In this document: piece by piece, positions 3,346-55,186 of the stretch
Layout of the letters: every line of letters starts with the position of its first letter
Numbering within the stretch: the first letter of the stretch is position 1
Origin: an uncultured Candidatus Actinomarina sp.
GTDB taxonomy: Bacteria; Actinomycetota; Acidimicrobiia; Actinomarinales; Actinomarinaceae
Reading direction: 5' to 3'
NCBI GenBank assembly: GCA_902534495.1
Contig: CACAQC010000002.1
Location: 14,517-78,516, forward strand
DNA length: 64,000 nt
Made by a program: the position numbers and the translations under genes
The notes under the pieces: generated by a model
What the model was told of the DNA's origin: nothing
The model's input: only the letters and a program-made list of their open reading frames with translations
Database searches by the model: none

Positions 3346-3416
3346 TACATATATAGTATTAAATTTATTAGTACCTGCTTCTTAAGAAGCCACGTACAAG
3401 TGTCCATAGGAGAAAA

Positions 3417-3704
3417 ATGAATAAATACGATTTGGTCTCAATCGTGAGACCCACAGCAGACGAATCAATCGTCGAATCAGTTCACAAATCCATTTCAGAA
3501 GTTATCTCAAATGGTGGTGGAAATGTGTCAGAACAAGGAGTTTGGCAAAGAAGAAAGCTAGCTTACGAAATAGATACATTCAAAGAGGGAATATACACGA
3601 TAACAAGCTTTGAAAGCCCTTCAAATGTTCCCGCAGAACTCGATAGAGTGCTAAAAATATCTGATGATGTCATTAGACACAAAGTCTTAAAGATGGAAAG
3701 CTAG
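3417..3704 (+). CDS. rpsF: 30S ribosomal protein S6
   Basis: Small basic/acidic ORF immediately upstream of ssb-rpsR-rplI, the conserved Gram-positive gene order. Confidence 0.85.
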   Translation: MNKYDLVSIVRPTADESIVESVHKSISEVISNGGGNVSEQGVWQRRKLAYEIDTFKEGIYTITSFESPSNVPAELDRVLKISDDVIRHKVLKMES

Positions 3705-3716
3705 AGGTATATAAAA

Positions 3717-4142
3717 ATGGTAGATAACACAGTAACAATAGTAGGAAATTTAACCGCAGACCCTGAAATTAGGGTTACTGACGGTGGTGCAACTCTTGCA
3801 GAAATTAGAATCGCACAAAATAAAAGAAAAAGAAACTCTGATGGATCCTGGGAAGAGGGAGATCCGATGTTTTTTCAAGGAACAGTTTGGAACGATATGG
3901 CAGAAAACGCGGCTGCTTCATTACAAAAAGGAATGAGAGTAGTTGTAGTCGGAAGATTAAATTACAGGTCTTGGGAAACACAAGATGGCCAAAACCGTTC
4001 AATTGTTGACCTCTCTATTGATGAAATAGCTCCTAGCTTACGATGGGCAAAAGCAAATATTGAGAGGGTATCAGGCGGTATGGGAACTTCACAGGAACCA
4101 GTTGCTAGAGAAAACTACGAAGAAGACGAAGCACCGTTTTAA
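3717..4142 (+). CDS. ssb: Single-stranded DNA-binding protein
   Basis: OB-fold SSB N-terminus ([13 protein letters not shown]) with an acidic C-terminal tail (EEDEAPF). Confidence 0.85.
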
Positions 4143-4147
4143 GGAGA

Positions 4148-4435
4148 TTGATTATGGCAAACGGAAAAAAGAGTGGTACAAGAAGATCTTCAAAATACGA
4201 GGCTCCTAAACAAAGAAGAATTACAAAGCAGCAAATAGAAAACGCAACTTACAAAGACGTTAAGTTGCTTGAAAAATTTATTTCTGATAGAGGAAAAATT
4301 AGATCCAGTTTGATAACAGGAATTACAAAACAAGAACAAGCAAAAGTTGCCCGTTTAATTAAAGTTGCAAGAGAGCTAGCTTTACTTCCCTATGTGACTA
4401 CAAGTTCATACAAGCAAAGCTACAACAGAAGATGA
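4148..4435 (+). CDS. rpsR: 30S ribosomal protein S18
   Basis: Basic 95-aa protein between ssb and rplI. Confidence 0.85.
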
Positions 4436-4884
4436 AACTTATTCTTAACTCTGATATAAAGTCTCTAGGAAGAAAGGGCGATGTAGTCGATGTAGCTAAA
4501 GGATATGCCAGAAATTATCTTTTGCCAAAAAAGCTGGCAGTTGTTGCTAATTCAAGCAACCTTAAGTTTGCTGAAGCATTAAGAGAAAAAAGAGAAATAC
4601 AAGCAGCAGCCAACAATGAATTAGCTGAATCAATCAAAACAGCGCTTGCTGATGCAAAAATCGTAATATCTCAAAATACAACAGATGAGGGAACACTATA
4701 CGCAGCAGTGAGTAATGAACAAATTGTTGATGCAATAGAAACATTCTCAGGATTTAGGTTAGAGGCTGAACAAATCGATGTTGAAAACCAAGTCAAAGAA
4801 ATAGGCCTTCATTCGATTTTTATTGTCTTAGGCCCAGATGCAAAATTTGAAACAACACTAGAAATCATACCTGAAACAAAATAA
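4432..4884 (+). CDS. rplI: 50S ribosomal protein L9
   Basis: [36 protein letters not shown] matches the L9 N-terminal domain. Confidence 0.85.
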
Positions 4885-6245
4885 TGGTTGGTCCTGAAGC
4901 ACTTTCATCAAGAGACACTCAGTCATTAGGCAAAGTTCCACCACACAGCCTTGAAGCCGAAGAGGCACTTTTAGGAAGCGCTTTATTATCCAGAGACGCA
5001 GTCTCGAGATTAATGGAAGAAGTCAGACCAGCCGACTTTTATAGCCCTTCAAATCAAACAGTTTATGAAGCTATGAAGGGTTTGTTTGATACAGGAAAAC
5101 CCATTGATACAGTTACTGTTTCTGAATTGATATTTAAAGATTCAAAAAACTCTAAATCAATCAATGCATCATATATTGCACGACTAGTAGACAATGTTCC
5201 AAGTTCAGCAAACTTTGAAAGATACATTGAAATAGTTTTAGAGCATTCGCATAGAAGGAAGTTACTTAAAGCTAGTGGAAGAATTGAACTTTTGGCAATG
5301 GCTATGGACAAAGAAATTCACAGTGTTCTTGATGAAGCTGAACAAACTATTTTTACTGCTTCCGATGATGCTATTGGAGACGGATTAGTAGGAGTTAATG
5401 ATGTTTTAGAGGGTGCTATCGAGAGAATCGAAGAGATTGAAAATCGTGGTACTGGCCTGTCGGGTCTTCCTACTTATTTCTCTGATCTTGATTATTACCT
5501 ATCTGGGCTTCAAGAAGGCAATCTAATAGTTCTTGCATCTAGACCCAGCATGGGTAAATCTTCACTCGGATTAAATATTAGTACAAATGCCTCAAAAGAA
5601 GGAAAGGTTGTTGCATTTTTCTCTCTTGAAATGACAAAAGAGGAACTGGTACAAAGAGTTTTATTTTCTGAAGCAAAAGTTACTTCAGGAGATGCAAGAA
5701 AAGGACAGCTGGGACCGGAAAAATGGTCAAGAGTTGTAGAAGCTGCATCAAAAGTCAACAGTCTCCCACTGTATTTTGATGATGCTCCAGTAATCACAGT
5801 TACTGATATAAGAGCTAAGTCGAGAAGACTCAAATCATCAAAAGGTTTAGATTTAATTGTTGTTGACTATCTTCAGCTCATGCAGAGTTCTTCTGGAGAT
5901 AATAGGCAACAAGAAATAGCTGAAATTAGTAGAAATTTGAAAAACTTAGCACGTGAATTAAGAGTTCCAATACTTGCTCTTTCACAGTTGAATAGAGCAG
6001 CGGAAGCAAGAGAAGATAAAAGACCAAGGTTGGGAGACTTGCGTGAATCAGGCGCAATAGAGCAAGATGCAGATATTGTGATGATGCTCTACAGGGATGA
6101 TTATTACAATCCTGGAACTGAAATACCAGGCGTCGCTGAAGTCAATATTGTCAAGAATAGGTCTGGACAGACCGGCAAAGTAGAGCTTTTCTTTAGTAAA
6201 GAATTTACACAATTTAGCAATTACTCAAAACAAGAACAGCAGTAA
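4884..6245 (+). CDS. dnaB: Replicative DNA helicase DnaB
   Basis: N-terminal PPHSLEAEEALLGS motif, Walker A (SRPSMGKSS), an RecA-like core, and conserved position after rplI. Confidence 0.9.
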   Translation: MVGPEALSSRDTQSLGKVPPHSLEAEEALLGSALLSRDAVSRLMEEVRPADFYSPSNQTVYEAMKGLFDTGKPIDTVTVSELIFKDSKNSKSINASYIARLVDNVPSSANFERYIEIVLEHSHRRKLLKASGRIELLAMAMDKEIHSVLDEAEQTIFTASDDAIGDGLVGVNDVLEGAIERIEEIENRGTGLSGLPTYFSDLDYYLSGLQEGNLIVLASRPSMGKSSLGLNISTNASKEGKVVAFFSLEMTKEELVQRVLFSEAKVTSGDARKGQLGPEKWSRVVEAASKVNSLPLYFDDAPVITVTDIRAKSRRLKSSKGLDLIVVDYLQLMQSSSGDNRQQEIAEISRNLKNLARELRVPILALSQLNRAAEAREDKRPRLGDLRESGAIEQDADIVMMLYRDDYYNPGTEIPGVAEVNIVKNRSGQTGKVELFFSKEFTQFSNYSKQEQQ

Positions 6246-7593: not shown

Positions 7594-9225
7594 ATGACAA
7601 GTGTTAGGGGACTGGGTGCTTCATTAGGTGTTGCAATAGGTTCATCATTTGTTTATGAAAATGAGATAGATTTTGATAAAGAAGCAATTCTCACTCATGT
7701 TGAGGCTAGCAAACAACTGATTGAAAAATTTAGTTCTCAAATCCTTGATTTCCGCTCAAAAGAAAGAAATGATGAAGCTGATATTTTAGATGCATACATA
7801 TTGATCCTTCAAGATCCTGAAATAGTGGCTCAACTAAATCAAAATTTAAATTCTTCAGTCGAAGAGGTTTATAGTATTTTTACGTCCACTGCGAGTGTAT
7901 TTGAATCAATGGAAGATGTTTATTTTAAGCAACGAGCTGAAGACATACTCTCTGTAGGAAAACACCTTGTTTTCAATATGCAAAATATTGAAAGAGAAAT
8001 TACTTTAAACGAAAACACTATTTTAATTGCTGAGGACTTAACACCTGCAGATACATCATCAATGGACTTGAGCAAAGTTAATGGAATTATATTAAAAGAA
8101 GGAGGGTTTACTTCGCATGCTGTTATTGTTGCAAAGAATTTGGGTATCCCTTGCGTGATCGGTGTAAAAAGTTTGCTCGACAATATTGTAGATGGCGAGT
8201 TAATAACAATTGACGGTGATACGGGGAATATTGTTATTTCTCCAAGTGAGAATGAGATATCTGAATTAAAAGAAAAACAAGGCAATATAACAAAGTTGAT
8301 TGATAATTTTACTAAAAAAAAGTACGAAAAACTAGGAGTAGAATTCAGAGTTAATATTGGTTCTTTAGAGGAGATTATTTCATTTAATCATCCCTTTTTA
8401 AACTCCATTGGCTTATTTAGGTCCGAGTTTATATATTTAGACAACACAAACATTCCAACACTTGATGAACAAACAAGGGTACTAGAACAAATAACTCAAA
8501 AATTCACTGGAACAATTGTTTATAGAACTCTTGATATTGGAGGTGACAAACAAGTAGATTATTTGAATTTACCTTCAGAAGAAAATCCCTTTCTTGGCGT
8601 AAGGGGGATTAGATTATTGTTGGGTGATATTGAACTATTTGATACACAAATAAAATCGATCTTAAATTCTAAATCATTAGGAAGAGTAAAAATCATGTTT
8701 CCAATGATTTCTACTATAGAAGATTTTATAAAAGCAAAAGAGTTTGTTGCTAAAATAGCGAATAACTTAAATGTCGAAGTTCCCCCACTGGGTATCATGG
8801 TAGAGACACCTTCGTCAGCTTTGATTGCTGATAAGTTTTCAGAAATTGTTGATTTCGTATCTATTGGCACCAACGATTTGACACAGTACATTATGGCTGC
8901 AGACCGTGGCAATAATAATTTAAGCCCGTACCAAGACCCACTTCATCCAGCGGTACTTAGGGCAATTTCTAATGTAATTGATTGTTGTAATACAAATAAT
9001 ACCGAGGTGTCAGTATGTGGTGAAATGTCATCAGATCCCGTCTCAGCATTTGTTTTATACATTTTAGGTTTAAAGATATTTAGTATGGCACCTTCAGCAG
9101 CTCCTTTTGTATTTGATGCTTTAGACACAAACTCAAAAATTAACAAACAAAAGATAAAAGATCAGATTTTACAACAGAATAATGCTGATGAGGTTAGAAC
9201 GATTATTCAAGAAATTATAAATTGA
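7594..9225 (+). CDS. ptsI: Phosphoenolpyruvate-protein phosphotransferase (PTS Enzyme I)
   Basis: GGFTSHAVIVAKNLGIPCVIG phosphohistidine region, NDLTQY motif, and PEP-utilising C-terminal TIM barrel. Confidence 0.9.
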   Translation: MTSVRGLGASLGVAIGSSFVYENEIDFDKEAILTHVEASKQLIEKFSSQILDFRSKERNDEADILDAYILILQDPEIVAQLNQNLNSSVEEVYSIFTSTASVFESMEDVYFKQRAEDILSVGKHLVFNMQNIEREITLNENTILIAEDLTPADTSSMDLSKVNGIILKEGGFTSHAVIVAKNLGIPCVIGVKSLLDNIVDGELITIDGDTGNIVISPSENEISELKEKQGNITKLIDNFTKKKYEKLGVEFRVNIGSLEEIISFNHPFLNSIGLFRSEFIYLDNTNIPTLDEQTRVLEQITQKFTGTIVYRTLDIGGDKQVDYLNLPSEENPFLGVRGIRLLLGDIELFDTQIKSILNSKSLGRVKIMFPMISTIEDFIKAKEFVAKIANNLNVEVPPLGIMVETPSSALIADKFSEIVDFVSIGTNDLTQYIMAADRGNNNLSPYQDPLHPAVLRAISNVIDCCNTNNTEVSVCGEMSSDPVSAFVLYILGLKIFSMAPSAAPFVFDALDTNSKINKQKIKDQILQQNNADEVRTIIQEIIN

Positions 9226-9902
9226 AAGTACATTCTATTCTTCTAGCTGGTGGCTCTAGCGACAGGTTTAATAATGAAGAAAACAAAGTTTACTTTCCAA
9301 TTGGCGGTAAGCCAGCACTTTCCTGGCCACTGGAGACCCTAGATAATTCCGATAAAGTTGACTCAATAATATTGGTTGTAAGGGATGAAGACTGGGAAAA
9401 AACTAATAATGTAATTCAGCTAGTTAATCCCAAAAAATTATCTGGTGTAACAATTGGTGGGAACACTAGACATGAAAGTGAATATCAAGGACTTCTTTAT
9501 CTAAAAGAAAGGCCAGACATAGATGAAGAAGACCTAATTTTAATTCATGATGGCGCAAGACCTTTGTTACCTAGTTATTTGTTAGACGAGCTTATTGATG
9601 TTGCAAAAAAATATGGAGCTTCAGCTCCTGGGTATAACTCAGATAATCTTATGAAAAAACAGGAATTTAACAAAGAAGAAATCCAAGAAACAATTGTAGA
9701 GATACAAACTCCACAGATATTTCCAGCTTCAGAACTTTGGAAATCCTATGAATTGGCAAAATTAGATAAATGGCAAGCAGTAGACACAACAGAATGCGTA
9801 TCAAAATATTCTGAGCTTGAGGCAGTAGTAATTCCTGGTGATCCAAGAAACATGAAGGTAACTTTTATAGAAGATATCTTTAAACTTGAGGAAATGATTT
9901 AA
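9222..9902 (+). CDS. IspD-family nucleotidyltransferase; either 2-C-methyl-D-erythritol 4-phosphate cytidylyltransferase or a TarI-like polyol-phosphate cytidylyltransferase
   Basis: LLAGGSSDRF, IHDGARPLL and QTPQIF motifs are shared by IspD and TarI. The TTG start overlaps the ptsI stop, so it is translationally coupled to ptsI. Confidence 0.7.
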   Translation: MKVHSILLAGGSSDRFNNEENKVYFPIGGKPALSWPLETLDNSDKVDSIILVVRDEDWEKTNNVIQLVNPKKLSGVTIGGNTRHESEYQGLLYLKERPDIDEEDLILIHDGARPLLPSYLLDELIDVAKKYGASAPGYNSDNLMKKQEFNKEEIQETIVEIQTPQIFPASELWKSYELAKLDKWQAVDTTECVSKYSELEAVVIPGDPRNMKVTFIEDIFKLEEMI

Positions 9903-10031
9903 AAAAATCATAAAAATAGGCCTTTCTTAATCAAAAATGGTTACATTTTTTTTAAGATTTCGGGTTTTTACCAAAATTCAAGGAATCATTTATGTAGAAT
10001 TAAAGTAACTATTTAAGTTGAAGGATGGAAG

Positions 10032-10445
10032 TTGTTATCTAGTTCACCATATGCACTTGGTGTCATATTTGTAACACTCGCACTTATGTGGGTTTTACAA
10101 ATGTATCTTGCTAAAAAACAGGCTACTGGTTTCTTAGATGCAGTAAACAGCATTAAAGGACCTGGCTTGGAAGTCGCTATAGGTGTAAATCAACCTAAAT
10201 GGGGGAGAAAAAAAATCTATCTAGCAATCTCTGCTGATGTAAATTCAACCATTGTTAACGGTCTTACTCTGGAGGGGGTAACTACTTTTGCAAAAAGTAA
10301 AAAAGTTTCGTTATTTAATGGCAAAACATTAAATGAAATTGCTAACTCAGAAAACAAAGAACCTATCTGGGATGCTGCCAAAATGGCAGCTGACACTTTG
10401 ATAAAAAAACTTCAAAGTAAAGCGGATAGTAATTCGACAAATTAA
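10032..10445 (+). CDS. gutM: Glucitol operon activator GutM-like protein
   Basis: N-terminal TM segment, then VAIGVNQPKWGRKKIYLAISADVNSTIVNGLTLEGVTTFAK. This parallels E. coli GutM (VGVGRS..RVVVAIALDDQQRIVDTLFMKGLTVFAR). Confidence 0.6.
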   Translation: MLSSSPYALGVIFVTLALMWVLQMYLAKKQATGFLDAVNSIKGPGLEVAIGVNQPKWGRKKIYLAISADVNSTIVNGLTLEGVTTFAKSKKVSLFNGKTLNEIANSENKEPIWDAAKMAADTLIKKLQSKADSNSTN

Positions 10446-10463
10446 TTATAAGGAGGGGGAGAT

Positions 10464-11006
10464 ATGGATGCTTTGGTAGCAGGCGCAGAAGCCTTTATCC
10501 AAGTATTTAGAACCGCTGCTGATGTGTTTGTTGGTTTCACAACTGGAATTATTCCAATTGTGGTTGTGTTCTTGACTGCAGTTAACGCTTTAGTCAAGTT
10601 CATTGGTGAGGAAAGAGTTGAGGGCTTTGCAAAATGGGCTTCTCAAGAAGGGGCACTTTACATGCCTGTTCGTTATACTCTTTTACCGTTTGTAGCTGTA
10701 TTTATGCTTACTAATCCAGTTTGCTATACATTCGGTACCTTTTTGCCTGAAAAACATAAACCAGCATTTTATGATTCAGCAGTAAGCTTTGTTCATCCCA
10801 TTACAGGAATTTTTCCACATGCGAATGGTGGAGAGTTATTTGTATGGTTAGGGATTGCAGCAGGTGTAGAAATAGTTGCACCAGATATGGTAACTGCTTT
10901 AGCAGTTAGATATCTTCTTGCTGGCCTTGTAGTCATATTAATTAGAGGTATCGTAACTGATATTATCTATAACATTATGACGTCAAGAAGGGCAGGTGTT
11001 GAATAA
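10464..11006 (+). CDS. srlA: PTS glucitol/sorbitol-specific EIIC component (SrlA)
   Basis: Collinear similarity to E. coli SrlA, e.g. FLPEKHKPAFYDSA... / FPHANGGELFVWLGIAAG. Confidence 0.85.
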   Translation: MDALVAGAEAFIQVFRTAADVFVGFTTGIIPIVVVFLTAVNALVKFIGEERVEGFAKWASQEGALYMPVRYTLLPFVAVFMLTNPVCYTFGTFLPEKHKPAFYDSAVSFVHPITGIFPHANGGELFVWLGIAAGVEIVAPDMVTALAVRYLLAGLVVILIRGIVTDIIYNIMTSRRAGVE

Positions 11007-11530
11007 TGCAAGCTTTAATAGAGAGAATTGGTCGATCAGTTGGCGGCGTGGTTGGAACATTGTTCCAAGCAGGTCGAGATGCTGTTGACCTATGTTTAAA
11101 AACAATAATTCCATTTATGGCATTCGTTACTTTTGTCATTGGTTTAATTTTAGAAACCGGTGTTGGTGACGCTATTGCAAATGGTATTAAAGGTTTTGCA
11201 AGCAGTTTAGGCGGATTAATGATAGTTTGTATCATATGCGCAATACCTGTTTTATCACCACTACTAGGACCTGGTGCAGTAATTGCTCAGATCGTTGGTG
11301 TATTAATTGGTACTGAAATTGGACGTGGAAACATTGATGTTTCAATGGCGCTTCCAGCTTTATTTGCAATTAACCCACAGGTTGGTTGTGACTTCGTACC
11401 GGTTGGTCTGGCTCTTGGTGAAGCAGAACCGGAGACAGTTACGGTTGGTGTTCCAGCAGTTCTAACAAGTAGAATGATTACTGGACCAATCTCAGTCGTT
11501 GTTGGTTATTTATTTGCACTAGGTTTGTAA
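11006..11530 (+). CDS. srlE: PTS glucitol-specific EIIC2 membrane domain; the SrlE C-terminal half as a separate ORF
   Basis: Hydrophobic 174-aa protein sitting between srlA and the EIIB ORF. Confidence 0.65.
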   Translation: MQALIERIGRSVGGVVGTLFQAGRDAVDLCLKTIIPFMAFVTFVIGLILETGVGDAIANGIKGFASSLGGLMIVCIICAIPVLSPLLGPGAVIAQIVGVLIGTEIGRGNIDVSMALPALFAINPQVGCDFVPVGLALGEAEPETVTVGVPAVLTSRMITGPISVVVGYLFALGL

Positions 11531-11557
11531 AGACATAACTTAACAATTTTTAAATTT

Positions 11558-11595
11558 GTAACGCTCTGACTAAAATCAGAGCGTTACATATTTTT
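11558..11595 (+). terminator. Rho-independent terminator/attenuator hairpin inside the PTS operon
   Basis: Perfect 11-bp inverted repeat gtaacgctctg-actaaaat-cagagcgttac followed by atattttt. Confidence 0.6.
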
Positions 11596-11607
11596 AGAGG
11601 AGAAACT

Positions 11608-11985
11608 ATGGCAAATTATAAAAAAGTAAAAGTAGAAGCAGGGCCGAGTGGTTGGGGAGGCCCTTTAGAAATACAACCAACCGATGAAAAAAAATACATT
11701 GTTTGTGTTACCGGTGGAGGAATTCATCCAGTTGCTCAAAAAATTGCTGATTTAACTGGGGCGGAAGCCTTTGATGGTTTTAAATCATCGCCAGAGGGAA
11801 GCTTTAAAGCAATGGCTTGTGCAGTAATTGATTGTGGAGGAACTGCGAGAATCGGTGTATATCCTATGAAGGGCGTACCAACGATTGATATTCATGACAC
11901 TACACCAGCAGGTCCACTCGCCCAATTTATTAAAGAAGAGAACTTTGTTTCTGGAGTTTCTGAGGATCAAGTTACTGAAGCTTAA
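11608..11985 (+). CDS. srlE: PTS glucitol-specific EIIB domain protein; the SrlE N-terminal domain as a separate ORF
   Basis: GPSGWGGPLEIQPT...YIVCVTGGG...AVIDCGGTARIGVYPMKGVPTIDIHDTTPAGPLAQF matches the SrlE N-terminus (GTGGWGGPLELK...VAVIDCGGTLRCGIYP...GPLAQY). Confidence 0.8.
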   Translation: MANYKKVKVEAGPSGWGGPLEIQPTDEKKYIVCVTGGGIHPVAQKIADLTGAEAFDGFKSSPEGSFKAMACAVIDCGGTARIGVYPMKGVPTIDIHDTTPAGPLAQFIKEENFVSGVSEDQVTEA

Positions 11986-12344
11986 TGCAAATTTATTCTT
12001 CAGAAATAGTAAGAATAGGCGAACAAGCTAATTTATTTTTAGATGAAGGAATCGTAGTTTTTTTCGGTGACAATGCACCAGAGGAACTCCAAGATTTTGC
12101 AGTCATACATAAACTAGAGCAAATATCTGGTGAAATTGTAGTTGGAACAAAAATAAGTCTTTCAGACTCTAATTTAGAAGTTGTCTCTGTAGGGCCTGTA
12201 GCCAATGAAAACTTTAAAAATTTGGGTCACTTAGTTTTAAAACTCGACTCTTCAACTGAAGAAGCACAGCTTGGAGATGTCAGGTGTACATTTGATAACA
12301 AACCGAATATAAAAATTGGGGATAATTTAAGGATAAACAATTGA
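11985..12344 (+). CDS. srlB: PTS glucitol/sorbitol-specific EIIA (SrlB)
   Basis: Size and collinear similarity to E. coli SrlB (ITRIG..., LGHVTLRFD vs LGHLVLKLD). Confidence 0.8.
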   Translation: MQIYSSEIVRIGEQANLFLDEGIVVFFGDNAPEELQDFAVIHKLEQISGEIVVGTKISLSDSNLEVVSVGPVANENFKNLGHLVLKLDSSTEEAQLGDVRCTFDNKPNIKIGDNLRINN

Positions 12345-13594
12345 ACTATACAGAACTATTAATTGCTCGTGAAAAAGACTTAGGCAGACCAGTAAGAGTT
12401 GGGTTGGCTGGTGCTGGCCAAATGGGTTCTGGTCTTGCTGCACAAATCGGGAAAATACCAGGAATGAGCCTTGTCGCTTGCGCTGATATAGATATTGGAA
12501 GAGCTGAGAATGCATTACGTCTTGCTGGAGTTGAGTATGTAAAACACAACAAGGAGGCGTCAAAGTCTATCGAAAGTGGACAAGGTGGTGTAGTAGATAA
12601 TGCATCTGCTCTTGCAGAACTACCAATAGATATTGTATTCGAAGCAACTGGTGTGCCATGGGTTGGTGCGGAGGTTGCTGATGCCTGTATTGAAGCACAA
12701 AAACATATACTCATGTTAAATGTAGAGACAGATGTCACAATAGGGATGTATTTAGCAAATAAAGCAAATAAAAATAATGTAGTTTATAGTGTTGCAAATG
12801 GTGATGAACCAGTTGCATGTAAAGAGTTATATGACTTCTCAGTGGATTTAGGTTTTGAGATAGTGTGTGTTGGAAAAGGAAAAAACAACCCACTAGATCA
12901 AACTGCAAACCCTGATACCTGTTTAGAAAAAGCTACCAAGAAGAATATGAATCCAAAAATGCTAGCAAGTTTTGAAGATGGTTCAAAAACTATGATTGAA
13001 ATGACTGCTTTGGCAAATGCAATAAATTTACCACCAGATCAAATCGGAATGAACGGACCAGTAAGTTCTGTAGAGGAATTGAACAAAGTCCTTATCCCTC
13101 AAGCTGATGGGGGTGTTCTAAGTGAATCTGGAAGAGTTGACTATGCATTTGGACCAGCACCCGGAGTATTTTCTATTGTGAAATCGGATAACCCAACTGT
13201 TATTGAAGAAATGGAGTATTTATCTATGGGAGAAGGTCCATATTACACTCTTTACAGGCCTTATCATCTAGCTTCAATTGAAGCACCTAGAAGTATTGGG
13301 ATGGCCATCATAAACAATGAACCTGGGTTACAACCAAAATCATGGATTGCAGAAGTTATTGGTCATGCAAAAAAAGACCTAAAAAAAGGTGAAAAGATAG
13401 ATGGAATTGGGGGATTTGCCACATACGGTGTTACTTACCCTGTTGCAAATACAAACAATTTAATTCCACTTGGATTATTAGAAGGTGCAACTGTTATTAA
13501 AGAACTAAAAAAAGGTGAACCAATAACAAAAGATTCAGTTGAACTTCCGGAAAATTTAATTAATAGTTTAAGAAAACTTCAAGAAGCTAGTTAA
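12341..13594 (+). CDS. NAD(P)-binding oxidoreductase with a homoserine-dehydrogenase-like N-terminus and SAF-like C-terminus (COG4091-type); candidate polyol-phosphate dehydrogenase
   Basis: N-terminal Rossmann motif VGLAGAGQMGSG; 417 aa; TTG start overlapping the srlB stop; sits where the sorbitol-6-P dehydrogenase is expected. Confidence 0.5.
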   Translation: MNYTELLIAREKDLGRPVRVGLAGAGQMGSGLAAQIGKIPGMSLVACADIDIGRAENALRLAGVEYVKHNKEASKSIESGQGGVVDNASALAELPIDIVFEATGVPWVGAEVADACIEAQKHILMLNVETDVTIGMYLANKANKNNVVYSVANGDEPVACKELYDFSVDLGFEIVCVGKGKNNPLDQTANPDTCLEKATKKNMNPKMLASFEDGSKTMIEMTALANAINLPPDQIGMNGPVSSVEELNKVLIPQADGGVLSESGRVDYAFGPAPGVFSIVKSDNPTVIEEMEYLSMGEGPYYTLYRPYHLASIEAPRSIGMAIINNEPGLQPKSWIAEVIGHAKKDLKKGEKIDGIGGFATYGVTYPVANTNNLIPLGLLEGATVIKELKKGEPITKDSVELPENLINSLRKLQEAS

Positions 13595-13604
13595 ATAGTC
13601 TTTA

Positions 13605-14564
13605 ATGACACTTAGTACAACCACTCAATTAGAACTTCATCGAATGATGATGCTGATTAGGTTGTTTGAGGAAGCACTAGAAGAAATGTTTTCAAGAGGC
13701 TTGCTCCATGGGACCATGCATCTATCTATAGGTCAAGAAGCTACAGCAGCTGGTGCATGTTTAGCTCTTCAAAAAGATGACTTAATTACTTCGACACACA
13801 GAGGGCATGGACATTGTCTTGCAAAAGGAGCCGAACCTTACAAGATGTTTGCAGAGTTACTCGGAAGAGAAGATGGATATTGTAGAGGCCGTGGTGGATC
13901 AATGCATATTGCTGATTTGTCAAATGGCAATCTTGGTGCCAATGGAATTGTTGCTGGCAGTTTAACAATTTCTGTTGGGGCAGCTTTATCATTCCAAATG
14001 CAAAAAAAAGACAATATTATCCTCTGTTTCTTTGGAGATGGAGCGGTTAATGAAGGCTCATTTCATGAGGCTTTAAATTTAGCATCGCTATGGAGTCTTC
14101 CAGTGTTATTTTTATGTGAGAATAATCAGTATGGAATGTCAATGGCAACTGACAAAGCGGTTGCTGGCGACTCAATTGCATCCAGAGGAAATTCTTATGG
14201 AATAGAGAGTATTCAAATTGATGGTAACGATGTCGAGGCTGTTTATAAAAATGTATTAAATTTTAAGAATAACATTTTATCGTCTGGAGGCCCAAAATTT
14301 ATTGAAGCAGTTACATATCGCTATAGGGGACACTCAAAATCTGATAGAAACTTATACAGAACAAGTGATGAAATTGAATATTGGAAAGAAGAAAAAGACC
14401 CTATAAAAAGATACATTGGAAAATTAATTGAGTCTGGAATTAGTGAAGATCAACTAAAAGATATTGATACAGATATTAAGGATTTAATTAGAAAATCGGT
14501 TAAGCAGGCATTAGATTCTCCGCTCAGTCCGATAACAAATTTAGAAGAGGATTCGTATGCCTGA
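13605..14564 (+). CDS. TPP-dependent 2-oxoacid dehydrogenase E1 component alpha subunit (acetoin/pyruvate dehydrogenase type)
   Basis: TPP-binding GDGAVNEG motif plus YRYRGHS. Confidence 0.85.
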   Translation: MTLSTTTQLELHRMMMLIRLFEEALEEMFSRGLLHGTMHLSIGQEATAAGACLALQKDDLITSTHRGHGHCLAKGAEPYKMFAELLGREDGYCRGRGGSMHIADLSNGNLGANGIVAGSLTISVGAALSFQMQKKDNIILCFFGDGAVNEGSFHEALNLASLWSLPVLFLCENNQYGMSMATDKAVAGDSIASRGNSYGIESIQIDGNDVEAVYKNVLNFKNNILSSGGPKFIEAVTYRYRGHSKSDRNLYRTSDEIEYWKEEKDPIKRYIGKLIESGISEDQLKDIDTDIKDLIRKSVKQALDSPLSPITNLEEDSYA

Positions 14565-15540
14565 GTTAACAACCGGACAGGCACTAAATAAAGCCCTTAG
14601 TTTGATATTAGAACAAAACCCTACAGCGTTTATTGCTGGTGAAGATATTGGAATTTACGGCGGTGCCTTTGGAGTTACCGATGGACTCCTAGCTCAATAT
14701 GGAGAGGAGAGAATTAAAGACACTCCAATTGCTGAAGATGTCATCGCTGGTTTAGCTGTTGGAGCATCAATGACAGGCGGAAAGCCTATTGTTGAAATGC
14801 AGTTTAGTGATTTTATTGTAAATGCAATGGATCCAATTGTTAATCAAGCTGCAAAGCTTCATTTTATGTATGGTGGATCGGTAAATGTACCAATAATCGT
14901 CAGAGGCGCTAGTGGAGCTGGGACTGGGGCCGCAGCACAACATAGCCAGTCACTTGAATCATGGTTTTGCCATGTTCCGGGATTAAAAGTAGTCACACCT
15001 TCAAATCCTCAGAATGCTTATGATCTATTGTTGCATTCTTTTGTCGATCCTAACCCAGTTATTTTTATGGAACATAAGTTAATATATAAAATCAAAGACA
15101 ATGTAGAACTTAATGATATTCCCAAGGAATCAAGCATGTTGGGTAAAGCAAATCTTATTAAAGAAGGAAACGACATGACAATAGTTGCCTACTCAAATAT
15201 GGTAAATGTTGCAAAAGAAGCATTAGCTGCTGAGGAATTACAAAATTGTTCAATTGAACTAATCGACCTTCAGACAGTTTCACCAATAGATTACGATACT
15301 ATTAAAAATTCACTCAAAAAAACAAAAAGACTTTTAGTTTGTCAGGAAGCTCCTTCCAATAGTTCTGTAGGAACAACCGTAGTTTCAAAAATTGTTGAAA
15401 GTGAGTTATTTCATCAACTCGAGGTTGCTCCAAAGCTGGTCTCAGGATTACATTCACCCATGCCCTCTGCAAAACACCTCGAATTAAATGTTATTCCCCA
15501 AGCCGAAGACATTACTAATGCAGTTAAAAGTATGTTATAA
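14557..15540 (+). CDS. TPP-dependent 2-oxoacid dehydrogenase E1 component beta subunit
   Basis: Transketolase-like pyrimidine-binding and C-terminal domains; overlaps the alpha gene, indicating an operon. Confidence 0.85.
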   Translation: MPELTTGQALNKALSLILEQNPTAFIAGEDIGIYGGAFGVTDGLLAQYGEERIKDTPIAEDVIAGLAVGASMTGGKPIVEMQFSDFIVNAMDPIVNQAAKLHFMYGGSVNVPIIVRGASGAGTGAAAQHSQSLESWFCHVPGLKVVTPSNPQNAYDLLLHSFVDPNPVIFMEHKLIYKIKDNVELNDIPKESSMLGKANLIKEGNDMTIVAYSNMVNVAKEALAAEELQNCSIELIDLQTVSPIDYDTIKNSLKKTKRLLVCQEAPSNSSVGTTVVSKIVESELFHQLEVAPKLVSGLHSPMPSAKHLELNVIPQAEDITNAVKSML

Positions 15541-15548
15541 ATATATAT

Positions 15549-15821
15549 ATGGCAAAAGAAAAAATTCAATTACCGGCAATGTCTGATCAAATGACAGAAG
15601 CTGAAATTTTAAGTTGGAAAGTTGACGTTGGTTCAAAGATTGAAAAGGGTGCCACGATATGTGAAATCTCTACTGACAAAGTTGATATGGATCTAGAATC
15701 ACCTTACTCCGGAGAAATTACTGACTTAGCATGTGAAGAGGGTGATATAGTAAATGTTGGTGACACAATAGCTGAAATAGAAACTGAAGAAGACAGTCTT
15801 TTAGGTTCAATATTCGATTAA
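15549..15821 (+). CDS. Stand-alone lipoyl-attachment domain protein (90 aa) with no E2 catalytic domain
   Basis: Lipoyl-domain signature around the lipoyl-lysine: ICEISTDKVDMDLESPYSGEI. Confidence 0.7.
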   Translation: MAKEKIQLPAMSDQMTEAEILSWKVDVGSKIEKGATICEISTDKVDMDLESPYSGEITDLACEEGDIVNVGDTIAEIETEEDSLLGSIFD

Positions 15822-16205
15822 TCAGCAGTTGCTGTAGGTAGTAATCTTTATGTATTCCTGAGTTTCTTCCTTAACAAAAACTCCCGATTTATGCACACAA
15901 GAAGAATTAAGCGCGACACTTTCTTTTACTATTAAATCGCAATTTACATTTAAATCTTCATAAACTTTCTTGTAATAATTCAAACAATCATTAATTTTCT
16001 TCTCGGCGTTATTTTTATTTTGTTGAGATAACGTAATCACGATGTTTTCATTTGTGATTTCAATATTTTCTGGATCAATATAGAAAGTTTCTTCATATAG
16101 GTTATCAAGTGTATTGCTTGTTTCAGTAGTTAAAAAACCTGATGCACTTGAGGAAATAATTGCTAAAAAACCTGCCCCCAGAAGGATATAAATTAAATTT
16201 TTCAT
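15822..16205 (-). CDS. Small secreted cysteine-containing hypothetical protein
   Basis: N-terminal signal peptide (LLGAGFLAIISSSASG) and four Cys residues. Confidence 0.35.
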   Translation of the reverse strand: MKNLIYILLGAGFLAIISSSASGFLTTETSNTLDNLYEETFYIDPENIEITNENIVITLSQQNKNNAEKKINDCLNYYKKVYEDLNVNCDLIVKESVALNSSCVHKSGVFVKEETQEYIKITTYSNC

Positions 16206-16298
16206 AAGTGAATTATAAAATGTCTTAATTCATCATAACTCTATATTCTGACAAATAGTGATTAAGAATTTAACGAATTATGACTAATATATTACATC

Positions 16299-16625
16299 AT
16301 GGCAGTAGAAAAAAAATTTAGAATACTAATTTATCCTGGTTTGCATACTCGCCCGGGTGCTAAATTTGTAGAGTTATGTAACAAGTTTGAAAGCGACATC
16401 GAAATTCTTTTTAACGATAAGGTTGCAAATGGCAAAAGTATTATCAACATAATGACCATGGCTGCGCCACAAAATGGGGAAATAACGATAAAAGTTAATG
16501 GTGTTGATGAAGAAATATTAATTAATGAATTAACAGATTGGCATGTTGAGGCTCACAAGTCTAAGGAAGATTTTGATAATTCACCAGACAAGCATGAGTT
16601 GCTGAAAGCTTTTGAAATAATTTAA
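16299..16625 (+). CDS. ptsH: Phosphocarrier protein HPr with C-terminal extension
   Basis: GLHTRPGAKFV active-site His15 region; 108 aa, about 20 aa longer than canonical HPr. Confidence 0.8.
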   Translation: MAVEKKFRILIYPGLHTRPGAKFVELCNKFESDIEILFNDKVANGKSIINIMTMAAPQNGEITIKVNGVDEEILINELTDWHVEAHKSKEDFDNSPDKHELLKAFEII

Positions 16626-18101: not shown

Positions 18102-19351
18102 TAGTTTATTTTAGATATCTTTTTTACTATTAATGAATCGATTCTTCTGTTATCTACTGCAGACACGGTAAGTTCTAATCCATGAACTGTAATCTTCTCA
18201 TTAACAGTTGGAAGCTTTTCAGAATAACTTAAATACAAGCCTCCCACGGTAGCAACATCTGATTCTTGTGATTCCAAACCAAAAAATTCTTCAAAATCAT
18301 CTATATCTGTTCTACCCTCAACAACCCATTGCCCGGGCCCCAATCTTTTAATGCCCTTAAATCTTTCGTCATGTTCGTCAGGCAGATCACCAACAAACTC
18401 TGATAGTACATCTTTAATAGTAATTACTCCTTCAATGCCACCATTTTCATCAATTACACAGGCAAAACTTGCTTGATTCTCTCTTAATATATTCAATGCT
18501 GAAAGAACAGTTGTGTATTCTGGAAGATAGATTGCATCTTTTACTAAATTTTCTACTTCGACTGAAGTTGCTTTACTATTTAAATTAAATAAATCTTTTA
18601 CGTAAACAATTCCAAAAGTGTCATCTAATGATTCTGATCTAGAAATAGGCATCCTAGAAATTCGCTTTTCATCAACAATCTTTTTCACATCTTCCATGTC
18701 AACAGGAATTGAAAGAAACAATACATCAACTCTTGGTGTCATAATTTCTTTTATGGGTCTGTCTGAAAAATCAAGAAGAGAATCAATAATTTCTCTCTCT
18801 GCTGGTAAAATCTGACCTTCAATCTCCCCGAGTGCGGTCAAGGCTTGTATATCCGCCTCTGTAACTTCTGCATCATCTTCTTCGGGAGCCTTAACAAACT
18901 TCATGATCAGATTAGTTATACCTTCTGTAAACGGAGCAAATATTTTTGATAGAACTTCAACTAAAAAAGTTGTTCTCGACAAAAATGATATCGGCAGCTT
19001 AGTCGCCAGAGTTTTTGGAGTAATATCTCCAAAAATTAAAACTATAACCGTAGTAAAAACTGTTGCAATCGCACTACCTGCGCTTTCACCAAAACGCCTA
19101 ACAAAAATAAGTGTTGCCACTGATGCCATCAATATATTTACAAAGTTATTACCAACTAATATTCCACCAATAGTTTTTTCAATATTTTCTTTAGCTCTTT
19201 TGATTCTTCTGTTCTTTTTGTTTTCATCCAACTGGTGTATTTTCTGGATTGGAATAGAAGTTATTGCTGTTTCAGAGCCTGATAGCATGCCCGACAGGAT
19301 TAGGCAAAGAAAAAATACTATGTATAAAACGATGTCAAAGTTAATACTCAA
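18101..19351 (-). CDS. HlyC/CorC (CNNM) family transporter with DUF21-CBS-CorC domains
   Basis: Four N-terminal TM helices, tandem CBS region, and C-terminal CorC_HlyC domain. Confidence 0.8.
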   Translation of the reverse strand: MSINFDIVLYIVFFLCLILSGMLSGSETAITSIPIQKIHQLDENKKNRRIKRAKENIEKTIGGILVGNNFVNILMASVATLIFVRRFGESAGSAIATVFTTVIVLIFGDITPKTLATKLPISFLSRTTFLVEVLSKIFAPFTEGITNLIMKFVKAPEEDDAEVTEADIQALTALGEIEGQILPAEREIIDSLLDFSDRPIKEIMTPRVDVLFLSIPVDMEDVKKIVDEKRISRMPISRSESLDDTFGIVYVKDLFNLNSKATSVEVENLVKDAIYLPEYTTVLSALNILRENQASFACVIDENGGIEGVITIKDVLSEFVGDLPDEHDERFKGIKRLGPGQWVVEGRTDIDDFEEFFGLESQESDVATVGGLYLSYSEKLPTVNEKITVHGLELTVSAVDNRRIDSLIVKKISKIN

Positions 19352-19382
19352 TTTGTATCATTGATTCTAGATAATTTTTGTT

Positions 19383-19706
19383 TTAAGTAAATACTTTTTT
19401 TAAATTTGTTTTATCAAGCGGTTTTAAAAGATGTCCATCAGCTCCAACTCTTTTAGCCTGAAAAACATCTGCTTCTCTGTCAATTAATAGAATTTTTTTT
19501 GAATTTGCAAATTTATTGTCACGACTAATTTCTCTGATGATTGAAGGACCACCATTGTTATTTACTTGCATATCAACAAAAATATAATCGTATGACAACT
19601 TGATATCATCACTTCCAACAAGATGAGTAAAATTGTAATCAAAATCAAGATATTTTAGTAAAGAATCCTTTACCCATTCGTTATCTGTTATCAAGCAAAT
19701 TTTCAC
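19383..19706 (-). CDS. Single-domain CheY-like receiver protein
   Basis: IFVDMQ phospho-acceptor region and LLKPLD (K-P) motif; 107 aa. Confidence 0.5.
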   Translation of the reverse strand: MKICLITDNEWVKDSLLKYLDFDYNFTHLVGSDDIKLSYDYIFVDMQVNNNGGPSIIREISRDNKFANSKKILLIDREADVFQAKRVGADGHLLKPLDKTNLKKVFT

Positions 19707-19747
19707 AGTTTTAAAAGACTACTATTGTATATATTTAAGTATATAAA

Positions 19748-20884
19748 ATGTTAAAACTATTACCCATATTATTTTTTGCAGCTGTAAATATTTCACAAAT
19801 TAGCATATTTGAAATAGATGGCATATTTTCAAATGGCCATATCAATGCTATTCAAAGATATGTAGATGAGAATGATTTAAGAGAATCAAACTTATTTGTT
19901 ATTCAATACAACGCCTCTGACACAAGTGAAAATAGTGTCACTGAATTACAAGAATTGCTTAAATACATCAAAACACCAAAAGCCATTTGGGTCGGGCCAA
20001 ACGAGACAATAGTTGACGCAGGACTTTTAAAGTCATTTGATTACGTTGGTATATCACCCGGTACAACAATTATCAATAAACTTTCTAATAATGAGTTTGA
20101 ATTTTTAGACCAAGAAGGAATCTATGAAGGTTACATGGTTGTAGGCTCAATAGGGGCGTTTATTGAAAATTTAGGAAGTGAAAATATAATATCAAATTTA
20201 ACTTCATTAGAAGGAATAACACCTGGCATTGTAAGTTTTGATATTAACTCCGATGATATTAATGAAATTAAATTTGTAAAACCGTCTTTATATGAAAGAT
20301 TTTATATTTCAATATCAAATCCCTTCTTTACATATCTGTTTTTTGCACTAGGTTTTGCACTTTTAGGTTTAGAGCTTTTTGCAATTGGACCGGGATTGAT
20401 GGCATTTATTGGAGCATTATTAATTGGTTTTTCCTCTATGACTTTTACTGAGTTTGGTCTAAATTATTATGGTTTAATTCTATTTCTGATTTCTTTTGTG
20501 ATTTTTATAAAAATATTAGCACGGGGATATTTTGGTCTCTTAGGAATTGCCGCTTTTTCTATCTTACACATTTCATCAATTGTGATGTTTATGAATTACC
20601 AGCTGGAAATAAATAATTTCTTGATGATATTTTGTTCAGCTATTATTTCTTTCTTTTATTTCGTTGCAATACCCACGGTGATTAGATCAAGACTTACTAC
20701 AGATACAAGTGCAATGTCATCATTTGAGGGTTCAACAGTAAAAATTTTAAAAATGCTGGGCGATAGTAAAGCTCTTGTCCAGTTTGAAAGAAATAATTTT
20801 GTTGTAGAAATACAAAATAACCAAACTTTTCAACTTAATCAAGAAGTAGAAGTTACTGAAATAGACGGAAAACTGTCAATCTAA
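19748..20884 (+). CDS. NfeD-family membrane protein with ClpP-like N-domain, TM region and C-terminal OB-fold
   Basis: Architecture and the C-terminal beta-barrel VKILKMLGDSKALVQFERNNFVVEIQ...EVEVTEIDGKLSI. Confidence 0.5.
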   Translation: MLKLLPILFFAAVNISQISIFEIDGIFSNGHINAIQRYVDENDLRESNLFVIQYNASDTSENSVTELQELLKYIKTPKAIWVGPNETIVDAGLLKSFDYVGISPGTTIINKLSNNEFEFLDQEGIYEGYMVVGSIGAFIENLGSENIISNLTSLEGITPGIVSFDINSDDINEIKFVKPSLYERFYISISNPFFTYLFFALGFALLGLELFAIGPGLMAFIGALLIGFSSMTFTEFGLNYYGLILFLISFVIFIKILARGYFGLLGIAAFSILHISSIVMFMNYQLEINNFLMIFCSAIISFFYFVAIPTVIRSRLTTDTSAMSSFEGSTVKILKMLGDSKALVQFERNNFVVEIQNNQTFQLNQEVEVTEIDGKLSI

Positions 20885-20943
20885 ACAATTACTTCGCGAA
20901 AAAAATCTTTTTACACGTCAATATCTTTAATTACTGTTTAGAT

Positions 20944-54979: not shown

Positions 54980-55055
54980 TGGTGGCCAGAGGCAGAATCG
55001 AACTGCCGACCCCTTGTTTTTCAGACAAGTGCTCTACCGACTGAGCTATCTGGCC
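54980..55055 (-). tRNA. tRNA-Phe (GAA)
   Basis: Reverse complement GGCCAGATAGCTCAGTCGGTAGAGCACTTGTCTGAAAAACAAGGGGTCGGCAGTTCGATTCTGCCTCTGGCCACCA folds into a cloverleaf; anticodon loop CTGAAAA. Confidence 0.9.
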
Positions 55056-55058
55056 AAA

Positions 55059-55136: not shown

Positions 55137-55186
55137 AACTCTTTAATAAAGAATACTACATAAGCTAACTAAAAAAAATTGATTTG

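Follow-up and report, generated by a model that had tools for sequence, protein, structure and literature searches.

A DXR-II-type oxidoreductase within a polyol phosphotransferase locus of Candidatus Actinomarina and its candidate role in methylerythritol use

A glucitol (Gut)-type phosphotransferase system (PTS) locus was analyzed in a 64,000-nucleotide stretch of DNA (the window; contig CACAQC010000002.1) from an uncultured Candidatus Actinomarina sp. At positions 7,594–16,625, the complete PTS is encoded together with an oxidoreductase of the DXR-II/DRL family, an IspD-family cytidylyltransferase, a thiamine pyrophosphate (TPP)-dependent E1 alpha/beta pair and a stand-alone lipoyl domain, a core that recurs across phyla. 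From gene content and homology, the locus is read as the streamlined Actinomarina form of a multi-phylum operon for a small polyol taken up from outside, with 2-C-methyl-D-erythritol (ME), known from plants and algae, as the most likely one, and we give this reading about an even chance. The operon probably imports ME and then either splits it to central metabolites, with the first two steps of isoprenoid synthesis in reverse, or feeds isoprenoid synthesis.

Background

DXR-II has been puzzling since 2010, as it duplicates DXR-I and has a patchy distribution. It is an alternative enzyme for conversion of DXP (1-deoxy-D-xylulose 5-phosphate) to MEP (2-C-methyl-D-erythritol 4-phosphate), and 11 members were shown to be functional (PMC3847144). 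A 2013 evolutionary study posed the question why a redundant enzyme evolved and reported DXR-II also in organisms with DXR-I, with the mevalonate pathway only, or with neither pathway. That study did not look at gene neighborhoods, and according to a 2026 review there is still no defining distribution pattern.

The DXR-II/DRL oxidoreductase

An earlier note on this DNA, made from the sequence alone, described the protein following srlB as a COG4091-type NAD-binding protein; the oxidoreductase assignment stood, and the DXR-II/DRL identity had been missed. The protein aligns over its full length with the Brucella abortus DRL structures 3upl and 3upy (E 3e-104; for 3upy, E 2.7e-104 over residues 9–416). 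A tree of 133 family members was built from 50%-identity cluster representatives of a 1.8-billion-protein library, proteins of the fetched loci and literature anchors; all trees in this analysis are neighbor-joining trees on distance matrices and carry no support values. The window protein lies inside the Lys-Lys-Thr clade with the DXR-II proteins of Brucella, S. fredii NGR234 and Listeria. Cupriavidus necator DLO2 and other relatives without the Lys-Lys-Thr signature are placed elsewhere in the tree, which includes no verified DLO1 anchor. By homology and tree position, the 'COG4091' protein is a member of the DXR-II/DRL family.

Eight of 10 hallmark residues, with roles as given in PMC3847144, are identical to those of the Brucella enzyme, and the two changes are H250N and V351I. 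The substrate and fosmidomycin anchors Lys191, Lys193 and Thr229 are kept as window K179, K181 and T217, and the dimer residues Glu174, Phe178, Arg320 and Tyr322 are kept as E162, F166, R306 and Y308. DXR-II proteins of E1-linked loci (NGR234 and Ochrobactrum/Brucella tritici relatives) have hallmarks identical to those of the crystallized, functional Brucella enzyme. No NCBIfam model matches the window DXR-II, and RefSeq labels the family 'NAD(P)H-dependent oxidoreductase' or 'SAF domain-containing protein'.

Gene neighborhoods across phyla

A DXR-II alignment was scanned over one genome per GTDB species. This yielded 80 loci from at least four phyla, in which open reading frames (ORFs) were labeled with the window proteins and the remainder were clustered. 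Context was counted in the 59 loci that have at least 3 kb on each flank. Gut-type PTS genes are present in 24 of the 59 and E1 alpha/beta genes in 27, with both in 17. IspD is encoded in 18 loci, 14 of which also have the Gut PTS. A SorC-type sugar-binding regulator (PF04198) is encoded in 34/59, and FGGY kinases (11/59), Zn-dependent dehydrogenases (13/59) and ATP-binding cassette (ABC) transporter ATPases (14/59) are also found. A PTS, FGGY kinase or ABC transporter ATPase lies within 7 kb in 47 of the 59 loci, and only 5 have none of PTS, E1, IspD, SorC regulator, FGGY kinase, Zn-dependent dehydrogenase and ABC ATPase. Across all 80 loci, E1 alpha is the gene directly downstream of DXR-II, on the same strand, in 23; IspD is directly downstream in 10, and SrlB is encoded directly upstream in at least 21.

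Actinomycetota carriers include Nocardia, Mycolicibacterium, Streptomyces, Cryobacterium, Cutibacterium and Rubrobacter. Other carriers are Chloroflexota, the Bacillota Thermovorax, Salibacterium and Salinicoccus, and the Alphaproteobacteria Brucella tritici, Phyllobacterium and Shinella. Salinicoccus was considered as a mevalonate-only carrier and dropped, since it carries ispD-ispF at a distance of 5 kb from the module. DXR-II homologs are also found on 89 plasmid records, mostly of plant-associated rhizobia.

Gene order was followed in several loci. On Agrobacterium tumefaciens plasmid pAtCFBP7129b, genes for a solute-binding protein, two permeases, an ATPase, a PfkB kinase, DXR-II, E1 alpha, E1 beta, E2, lpdA and lipA follow one another, with a divergent SorC regulator gene upstream. 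A Priestia plasmid encodes E1 alpha, E1 beta, E2, lpdA, two SorC regulators, a major facilitator superfamily (MFS) transporter, DXR-II and an FGGY kinase. The Listeria innocua locus encodes a SorC regulator, DXR-II, GutM, SrlA, SrlE and SrlB. In S. fredii NGR234, E1 alpha, E1 beta and E2 are encoded directly behind the DXR-II gene; the 2013 DXR-II paper lists NGR234 as a carrier.

The front ends are thus a Gut PTS, an ABC transporter with a PfkB kinase, or an MFS or ABC transporter with an FGGY kinase. With at least three interchangeable import-and-phosphorylate front ends on one core, the system bears the usual mark of operons that catabolize a substrate arriving unphosphorylated from outside. 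The arrangement in the window is not due to chance, as the same gene associations turn up across phyla, also on plasmids and in genomes that are large and not streamlined. The earlier note had grouped the oxidoreductase, the TPP enzyme and the lipoyl protein with the PTS, and the cross-phylum linkage bears this out. The DXR-II–PTS–E1 linkage is a widespread operon for which no earlier description was found. The literature search found no earlier description of ME catabolism, or of DXR-II with a PTS or acetoin; subscription journals lay mostly outside that search, so a prior report is possible.

A further type of locus was observed in Chloroflexota, Bacteroidota, Spirochaetota and some Clostridia, where DXR-II is encoded with an FGGY kinase and a Zn-dependent alcohol/polyol dehydrogenase and without E1/E2 (L013, L019, L034, L038, L042, L047, L048, L050, L065, L068, L070, L073 and L081). 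Judged from gene content, these loci may use the enzyme in another route, of which salvage of 1-deoxy-xylulose or of a deoxypentitol would be examples.

Organization of the Actinomarina locus

All genes named in the earlier note were recovered with the same order, families and positions using the ORF list, Pfam and NCBIfam. The features are as follows.

7594..9225, + strand: ptsI, PTS enzyme I (EI); 543 aa; PF05524, PF00391, PF02896
9222..9902, + strand: IspD-family cytidylyltransferase of the DXR-II-linked clade; 226 aa; PF01128, 112 bits
10032..10445, + strand: GutM-family activator, opening the gutM-to-lipoyl unit; 137 aa; PF06923, 57.7 bits
10464..11006, + strand: SrlA-type EIIC1; 180 aa; PF03608, 223 bits
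11006..11530, + strand: C-terminal half of SrlE (membrane, EIIC2) as its own ORF; 174 aa; PF07663 and the last 27 positions of PF03612
11557..11588, no strand: 12-bp inverted repeat between the EIIC2 and EIIB genes; terminator scan
11608..11985, + strand: N-terminal half of SrlE (EIIB) as its own ORF, after the C-terminal half; 125 aa; PF03612 positions 1–116, 177 bits
11985..12344, + strand: SrlB-type EIIA; 119 aa; PF03829, 101 bits
12341..13594, + strand: DXR-II/DRL-family oxidoreductase; 417 aa; PF21135 (DRL_cat), 211 bits, and SAF domain
13605..14564, + strand: TPP-dependent E1 alpha; 319 aa; PF00676, 270 bits
14557..15540, + strand: E1 beta; 327 aa; PF02779 and PF02780
15549..15821, + strand: lipoyl carrier; 90 aa; PF00364, 75 bits; TDKV lipoyl-lysine motif
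15822..16205, - strand: ORF without a Pfam match, its N-terminus resembling a signal peptide, between the lipoyl and HPr genes; 127 aa
16299..16625, + strand: HPr; 108 aa; PF00381, 73 bits

From gutM through the lipoyl gene, neighboring ORFs overlap or are separated by gaps of at most 78 nt. The TGA stop of ptsI and the TTG start of ispD overlap within TTGA; the overlap had been noticed before. The DXR-II gene has a TTG start that overlaps the srlB stop, and the E1 alpha and E1 beta genes overlap by 8 nt. A 130-nt AT-rich gap lies upstream of gutM. A promoter scan gave a site count no higher than in shuffled sequence, and an Rfam scan matched only tRNAs, all outside the locus.

The locus resembles the enterobacterial gut/srl operon (srlAEBD-gutM-srlR-gutQ) in its SrlA, SrlE and SrlB homologs, in GutM and in a dehydrogenase gene right after srlB. 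It differs in the absence of SrlD, SrlR and GutQ, in the split SrlE with its C-terminal half first, and in a dehydrogenase that is DXR-II rather than short-chain. E1 alpha/beta, the lipoyl protein and IspD are additional, and EI and HPr are encoded within the locus. The statement in the earlier note that this is not the canonical gut operon therefore holds, with a PF21135 protein at the srlD position. The absences that it listed were also found: no SrlD-type short-chain dehydrogenase is encoded within 7,594–16,625, and tblastn with full-length proteins from related loci detected no E2 catalytic domain or E3 elsewhere in the window. The same search also found no SorC regulator. Neither lipA, a second IspD-family ORF nor ispF was found in the window.

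E1 alpha/beta and the lipoyl domain

E1 alpha scores 349 bits against TIGR03182, the NCBIfam model of pyruvate dehydrogenase (PDH) E1 alpha, which is under the cut-off of 394; E1 beta scores 322 bits against NF006667 (cut-off 321). E1 also has weak Pfam and NCBIfam matches to DXS and transketolase domains. KEGG-based annotation in the PMC7771536 supplement names the Actinomarinales E1 genes acoA/acoB.

The 90-aa lipoyl protein is 36% identical to residues 14–103 of the full-length E2 of the Nocardia module, and the match extends to a motif just past the lipoyl domain (LLGSIFD in the window, MLEGLFD in Nocardia). A product of the same length is encoded in four related marine contigs (L001–L004). 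In other relatives, the ORF after E1 beta encodes a complete E2, in which the lipoyl, E3-binding and catalytic domains are all present, and several loci then carry E3; E3 is inside the operon in L057, L084, Agrobacterium and Priestia. Since relatives carry a full E2 and some also E3 and LipA, loss of the E2 core and E3 is read as an Actinomarina-specific reduction. By alignment, the Actinomarina E2 is an E2 cut down to its lipoyl domain. On the absent E2 core and E3, the interpretation in the earlier note is thus not supported. The stand-alone lipoyl domain would be a natural example of an E1 operating without its own E2 core.

Tamaricihabitans (L008) encodes a second E1 alpha-E1 beta-E2 set at 18268–21264, 7 kb from its module. 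This second E1 scores 261 bits against the window E1, versus 360 bits for the module E1, which suggests that module E1 proteins form an orthologous group of their own, apart from housekeeping complexes.

The linked IspD

The window IspD scores 138.1 bits against TIGR00453 (cut-off 181.3) and 76.9 bits against the TarI model NF001183 (cut-off 166). In the PDB it matches IspD about as strongly as TarI. PDB and NCBIfam results are not decisive between the two, though they favor IspD. The protein is like IspD and TarI in its PF01128 fold and catalytic Arg, Lys and Asp, and E. coli IspD residues R20, K27, D106, R109, T165 and K213 are all kept in the alignment. It is unlike them in its separate DXR-II/PTS-linked clade, its shortened arm, and the lack of an adjoining ispF or tarJ.

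A phylogeny of this protein had been proposed in the earlier note. In the tree, IspD proteins adjoining DXR-II or PtsI form one clade that includes those of the window, L075 (Ca. Actinomarina sp. AG-313-C18), Nocardia, Mycolicibacterium, freshwater actinobacteria and others. Three kinds of IspD fall outside this clade: that of E. coli, one linked to ispF (L054), and canonical-type proteins of Microbacteriaceae and Propionibacteriaceae whose genes also lie near the module. The earlier note had named clustering with MEP-pathway enzymes as part of what would refute its reading, and such clustering is not seen. Nocardia, Mycolicibacterium and Streptomyces are expected to encode a canonical ispD-ispF outside the module, in which case their linked IspD would be a module-specific paralog. 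The L075 IspD had been considered canonical from two aligned residues; this was ruled out by the tree and the arm alignment, which make it an ortholog of the window IspD. A TarI role in feeding the glycan island downstream was also rejected: there is no TarJ-like partner, the linkage to DXR-II occurs in genomes free of the island, and NCBIfam favors IspD.

A second, convergent IspD-family gene was observed beside the DXR-II-linked ispD in L006 (13625–14341, - strand), L030 (11965–12636, - strand) and L036 (9342–9977, - strand), and also in L007, L025 and L049. Its product is without equivalents of the CTP-binding Arg20 and Lys27 and keeps an arm motif, DT.K...DR, whose loss marks the linked IspD. 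From this complementary pattern of residues, the two proteins may form a heterodimer.

PTS genes and the inverted repeat

The Gut-family set of EIIC1, EIIBC and EIIA is complete, with PF03608, PF03612, PF07663 and PF03829 far above cut-offs. EI scores 422 bits against TIGR01417 (cut-off 342), SrlA passes the NCBIfam SrlA equivalog NF049923 with 206 bits (cut-off 150), and the two SrlE halves sum to about 423 bits against an NCBIfam cut-off of 400. The translations contain the phospho-relay motifs VIDCGGT (EIIB), GLHTRP (HPr) and GGFTSH (EI), which correspond to the EIIB active-site Cys, HPr His15 and the EI phospho-His. No part of the PTS is missing, and each appears intact. The split of srlE described in the earlier note is real: the PF07663 half is encoded before the PF03612 half, and the same split with reversed halves is found in other actinobacterial, Chloroflexota and spirochaete loci. 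SrlA is 47–55% identical to DXR-II-linked SrlAs of other phyla versus 41% to E. coli SrlA, the single canonical comparator.

The inverted repeat has perfect 12-bp arms, TGTAACGCTCTG-N8-CAGAGCGTTACA, followed by a T-rich stretch, and lies inside the 78-nt EIIC2-EIIB gap. The stem is invariant in L001–L004 and in a single-cell genome (L062), with variable loop and flanks, and no further copy is present in the window. It could act as an attenuator within the operon, as an RNA stabilizer or hairpin, or as a regulator-binding operator; no compensatory changes are available to choose among these.

A cassette of mannitol PTS genes (EIIC, EIIB, EIIA) and mannitol-1-phosphate dehydrogenase (mtlD) was observed between the lipoyl and HPr genes of the 83%-identical relatives (L001 14007–16970; in L075, 7492–10459) and is absent at window 15822–16299. 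The Gut-type permease is therefore the sole PTS permease seen in the window, and the PTS gene content of the locus is strain-variable. The minus-strand 127-aa ORF (15822–16205) is kept at the same place in L001–L004.

Proposed pathway

DXR-II and IspD are both MEP enzymes, and their presence on one polyol PTS points to ME as the substrate. Under the proposed pathway, EI, HPr, EIIA, EIIB and EIIC would import ME and phosphorylate it to MEP. DXR-II would act in reverse (MEP + NADP+ to DXP + NADPH), a direction implied by its place in an uptake-and-cleavage operon. E1 alpha/beta would then cleave the C2-C3 bond of DXP, a methyl-ketol that in structure is an acetoin analog bearing a phosphate, as acetoin dehydrogenase does with acetoin, releasing glyceraldehyde 3-phosphate, and the hydroxyethyl-TPP would reductively acetylate the lipoyl protein. 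In the complete complexes of relatives, E2 and E3 would yield acetyl-coenzyme A (acetyl-CoA) and NADH; a full E2 and E3 imply an oxidative, CoA-acylating and hence catabolic complex. In Actinomarina, a different 2-oxoacid dehydrogenase complex, with its genes elsewhere, would supply the E2 core and E3 for transfer of the acetyl group to CoA and re-oxidation of the lipoyl domain. The IspD paralog would convert part of the MEP to 4-diphosphocytidyl-2-C-methyl-D-erythritol (CDP-ME) as an isoprenoid salvage branch. The predicted net reaction is ME + phosphoenolpyruvate + NADP+ + NAD+ + CoA to pyruvate + glyceraldehyde 3-phosphate + acetyl-CoA + NADPH + NADH.

Several published observations concern single steps. 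The sorbitol PTS of Salmonella is reported to import ME (Testa et al. 2004, as cited in PMC3994034). Formation of 1-deoxyketoses by PDH and acetoin dehydrogenase, the reverse reaction, was reported by Yokota & Sasajima (1986), as given in a citing paper. Possible sources in the environment are ME and ME-glucosides, which plants accumulate, and 2-C-methyl-D-erythritol 2,4-cyclodiphosphate (MEcDP), which plants and microbes export under oxidative stress (PMC11192765).

The proposed steps differ from known systems in specific ways. The window enzyme shares heterotetramer-type TPP E1 alpha/beta subunits, a lipoyl acceptor and the proposed conversion of a methyl-ketol to an aldehyde and acetyl-lipoyl with acetoin dehydrogenase (AcoA/AcoB/AcoC/AcoL). 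In contrast, its proposed substrate is the phosphorylated ketol DXP, the Actinomarina E2 is only 90 aa, and E3 is absent. With DXS it would share TPP chemistry at the C2-C3 bond of DXP; unlike the single-chain DXS, the window E1 is split into alpha and beta, and cleavage with oxidative transfer to lipoyl is proposed, not decarboxylative synthesis. DXR-II as described is only a biosynthetic alternative to DXR-I, whereas the window and most relatives embed it in an uptake-and-cleavage operon.

Both metabolic branches raised in the earlier note, oxidation followed by C-C cleavage and formation of a CDP-polyol, are judged plausible. Its architectural logic was right, and its substrate and glycan-island link are probably wrong. 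Hexitol 6-phosphate is unlikely as the substrate, as the DXR-II identity of the oxidoreductase and the co-localized IspD point to the C5 branched polyol ME. No link of a CDP-polyol to the downstream glycan island was found; with IspD-DXR-II linkage in island-free genomes, CDP-ME would go to isoprenoids instead.

Weighing the reading

Several observations weigh against ME catabolism by this operon. DXR equilibrium lies on the MEP side, and reversal therefore needs pull from the E1 step. The position of His250 is Asn238 in the window DXR-II, and in the actinobacterial clade it is H, Y, N, T or A. The substrate-anchoring Thr229 is Ala in eight actinobacterial relatives. With this variation at 229 and 250, the substrate specificity of actinobacterial DXR-II may differ; to our knowledge, none has been assayed so far. 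Among DXR-II proteins as a whole, His250 is described as conserved in nearly all. The linked IspD has no equivalents of E. coli arm residues T140 and R157 in an arm that is variable and poorly alignable, and a shorter arm without them is a trait of the whole linked clade. In E. coli IspD, T140 and R157 are the partner-subunit arm residues that bind MEP. Discharge of a free acetyl-lipoyl domain without its own E2 core is unexplained. Loci with an FGGY kinase and a Zn-dependent dehydrogenase are mostly without E1, and the family may serve more than one route. For the catabolic direction, we know of no enzyme or transport assay on any operon member.

The divergent Actinomarinales lineage L075 has no Gut PTS, E1 or lipoyl genes at its locus. 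It keeps ptsI-ispD-DXR-II, which argues for a role of the pair independent of ME import. In freshwater actinobacterial loci, DXR-II and IspD are likewise found together and a PTS is absent. These pairings without a PTS suggest a housekeeping role, and from such gene content the IspD/DXR-II pair may double as housekeeping MEP-pathway enzymes in Actinomarinales and streamlined actinobacteria.

The same pathway logic could apply to another small polyol, branched or deoxy (2-methylthreitol, 1-deoxypentitol, 1-deoxy-D-xylulose or apiitol), with a DXR-II-type enzyme forming a ketol that E1/E2 cleaves. The variable actinobacterial hallmark positions and the altered arm of the linked IspD fit such a substrate, and the FGGY kinase and Zn-dependent polyol dehydrogenase contexts suggest related, non-identical ones. 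We nevertheless regard it as unlikely: the window enzyme keeps Lys-Lys-Thr and 8 of 10 hallmarks, the E1-linked DXR-IIs match the functional Brucella enzyme, and MEP is the simplest account of the IspD linkage. More doubtful still is a glucitol/hexitol PTS as annotated, in which the COG4091 protein replaces sorbitol-6-phosphate dehydrogenase and E1, lipoyl protein and IspD are downstream or unrelated. SrlA and the summed SrlE halves do pass their NCBIfam cut-offs, the oxidoreductase occupies the exact srlD position of E. coli, and Lopez-Perez et al., in their Actinomarinales survey (PMC7771536), list the system simply as sorbitol PTS uptake. Yet TPP/lipoyl-dependent cleavage is not needed for fructose 6-phosphate, the oxidoreductase is in the DXR-II clade, and the IspD linkage would be left unexplained. 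The DXR-II–E1/E2 linkage moreover survives replacement of the PTS by an ABC transporter and kinase, DXR-II-linked SrlAs are mutually closer across phyla than to the one canonical comparator from E. coli, and the enterobacterial sorbitol PTS itself takes ME.

An anabolic cluster appears similarly improbable. E1 would substitute for DXS (pyruvate + glyceraldehyde 3-phosphate to DXP), DXR-II and IspD would follow, and the PTS would merely be adjacent. Three successive MEP-entry chemistries would then be co-located, single mutations enable E. coli PDH E1 to supply DXP (PMC3424233), and the pairing of IspD and DXR-II without a PTS in L075 and freshwater loci suggests a housekeeping role. Set against this, E2, E3 and even lipA in the operons of relatives are useless to a carboligase, the lipoyl domain is kept in a highly streamlined genome, and transporters, kinases and SorC-type sugar-phosphate regulators travel with the core; L075 itself has IspD and DXR-II but no E1. 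It is very improbable that streamlining packed together unrelated genes, in which case the E1 would be that of a conventional acetoin/pyruvate dehydrogenase, the IspD a housekeeping enzyme and the PTS one for sorbitol, without a common pathway. Actinomarinales genomes are very compact and strongly syntenic according to PMC7771536, and the promoter scan was uninformative. The census strongly disfavors this account, since in Actinomycetota, Bacillota, Chloroflexota and Alphaproteobacteria the linkages are also found in large genomes and plasmids that are not streamlined.

Implications

For the family as a whole, we tentatively propose, at somewhat less than even probability, that the main and possibly ancestral job of DXR-II is catabolic, from ME via MEP and DXP to glyceraldehyde 3-phosphate and acetyl-CoA with an IspD salvage branch. 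As part of the same tentative proposal, held no more firmly, the pathway would be spread over Actinomycetota, Bacillota, Chloroflexota and Alphaproteobacteria. If DXR-II is catabolic, its occurrence alongside DXR-I, and in organisms with only the mevalonate pathway or no isoprenoid pathway, would be accounted for. The neighborhood pattern offers a concrete answer to the redundancy puzzle, with DXR-II as part of an uptake-and-cleavage operon for a polyol derived from the MEP pathway. The main interest of the finding is that this puzzle becomes testable in culturable carriers of the operon. Read as a catabolic operon with a polyol PTS, the locus is novel in that its enzyme set and its predicted substrate are without precedent.

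If the uptake-and-cleavage reading is correct, the pathway is a catabolic one not described before, and acetoin-dehydrogenase-type complexes gain a new class of substrate. The reading would also change the view of the fosmidomycin-insensitive DXR-II of pathogens (Brucella, Listeria) and correct the 'sorbitol PTS' annotation in many genomes. Actinomarina are among the most abundant surface-ocean bacteria, and a likely source of carbon or isoprenoid precursors would be identified for this uncultured marine actinobacterium. Under the tentative proposal for the family, the pathway in Actinomarina would be served by the sole PTS permease seen in the window, and ME or a close analog from stressed phototrophs would be a significant currency of marine dissolved organic carbon.

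Actinomarinales relatives and genome setting

Actinomarina is a streamlined marine actinobacterium with about 30% G+C. Comparison of gene order in related genomes, also proposed in the earlier note, gave the same order in four 83%-identical marine contigs including TARA (L001–L004), with a WhiB gene nearby, and in the Candidatus Actinomarina AG-410-M23 single-cell genome (L062), at 98% identity over the available part. In L075, ptsI-ispD-DXR-II are contiguous at 2627–6160, and genes for a UPF0047 protein, a peroxiredoxin and the mannitol PTS follow DXR-II. The supplement table of PMC7771536 lists ispD, acoA/acoB and srlA and has no entries for dxs, dxr, ispE or ispF. In the Actinomarinales literature searched, nothing is stated on the MEP pathway.

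Outside the locus, SelB and SelA genes are found at 21196–24161 (- strand) in this very small genome. Near them are a WhiB gene (20944–21204) and a gene for an Mrp/NUBPL-type Fe-S ATPase (24158–25288). A low-GC region (26–30% G+C) starts at about 28 kb, where the large ORFs 30559–32076, 37895–39787 and 43080–44768 have no Pfam match. It holds four tRNA genes, three of them clustered (54983–55259, and 57638–57711 on the - strand). This tRNA-bearing region fits the published Actinomarinales glycotype island fGI1, in which tRNAs are insertion hot spots.

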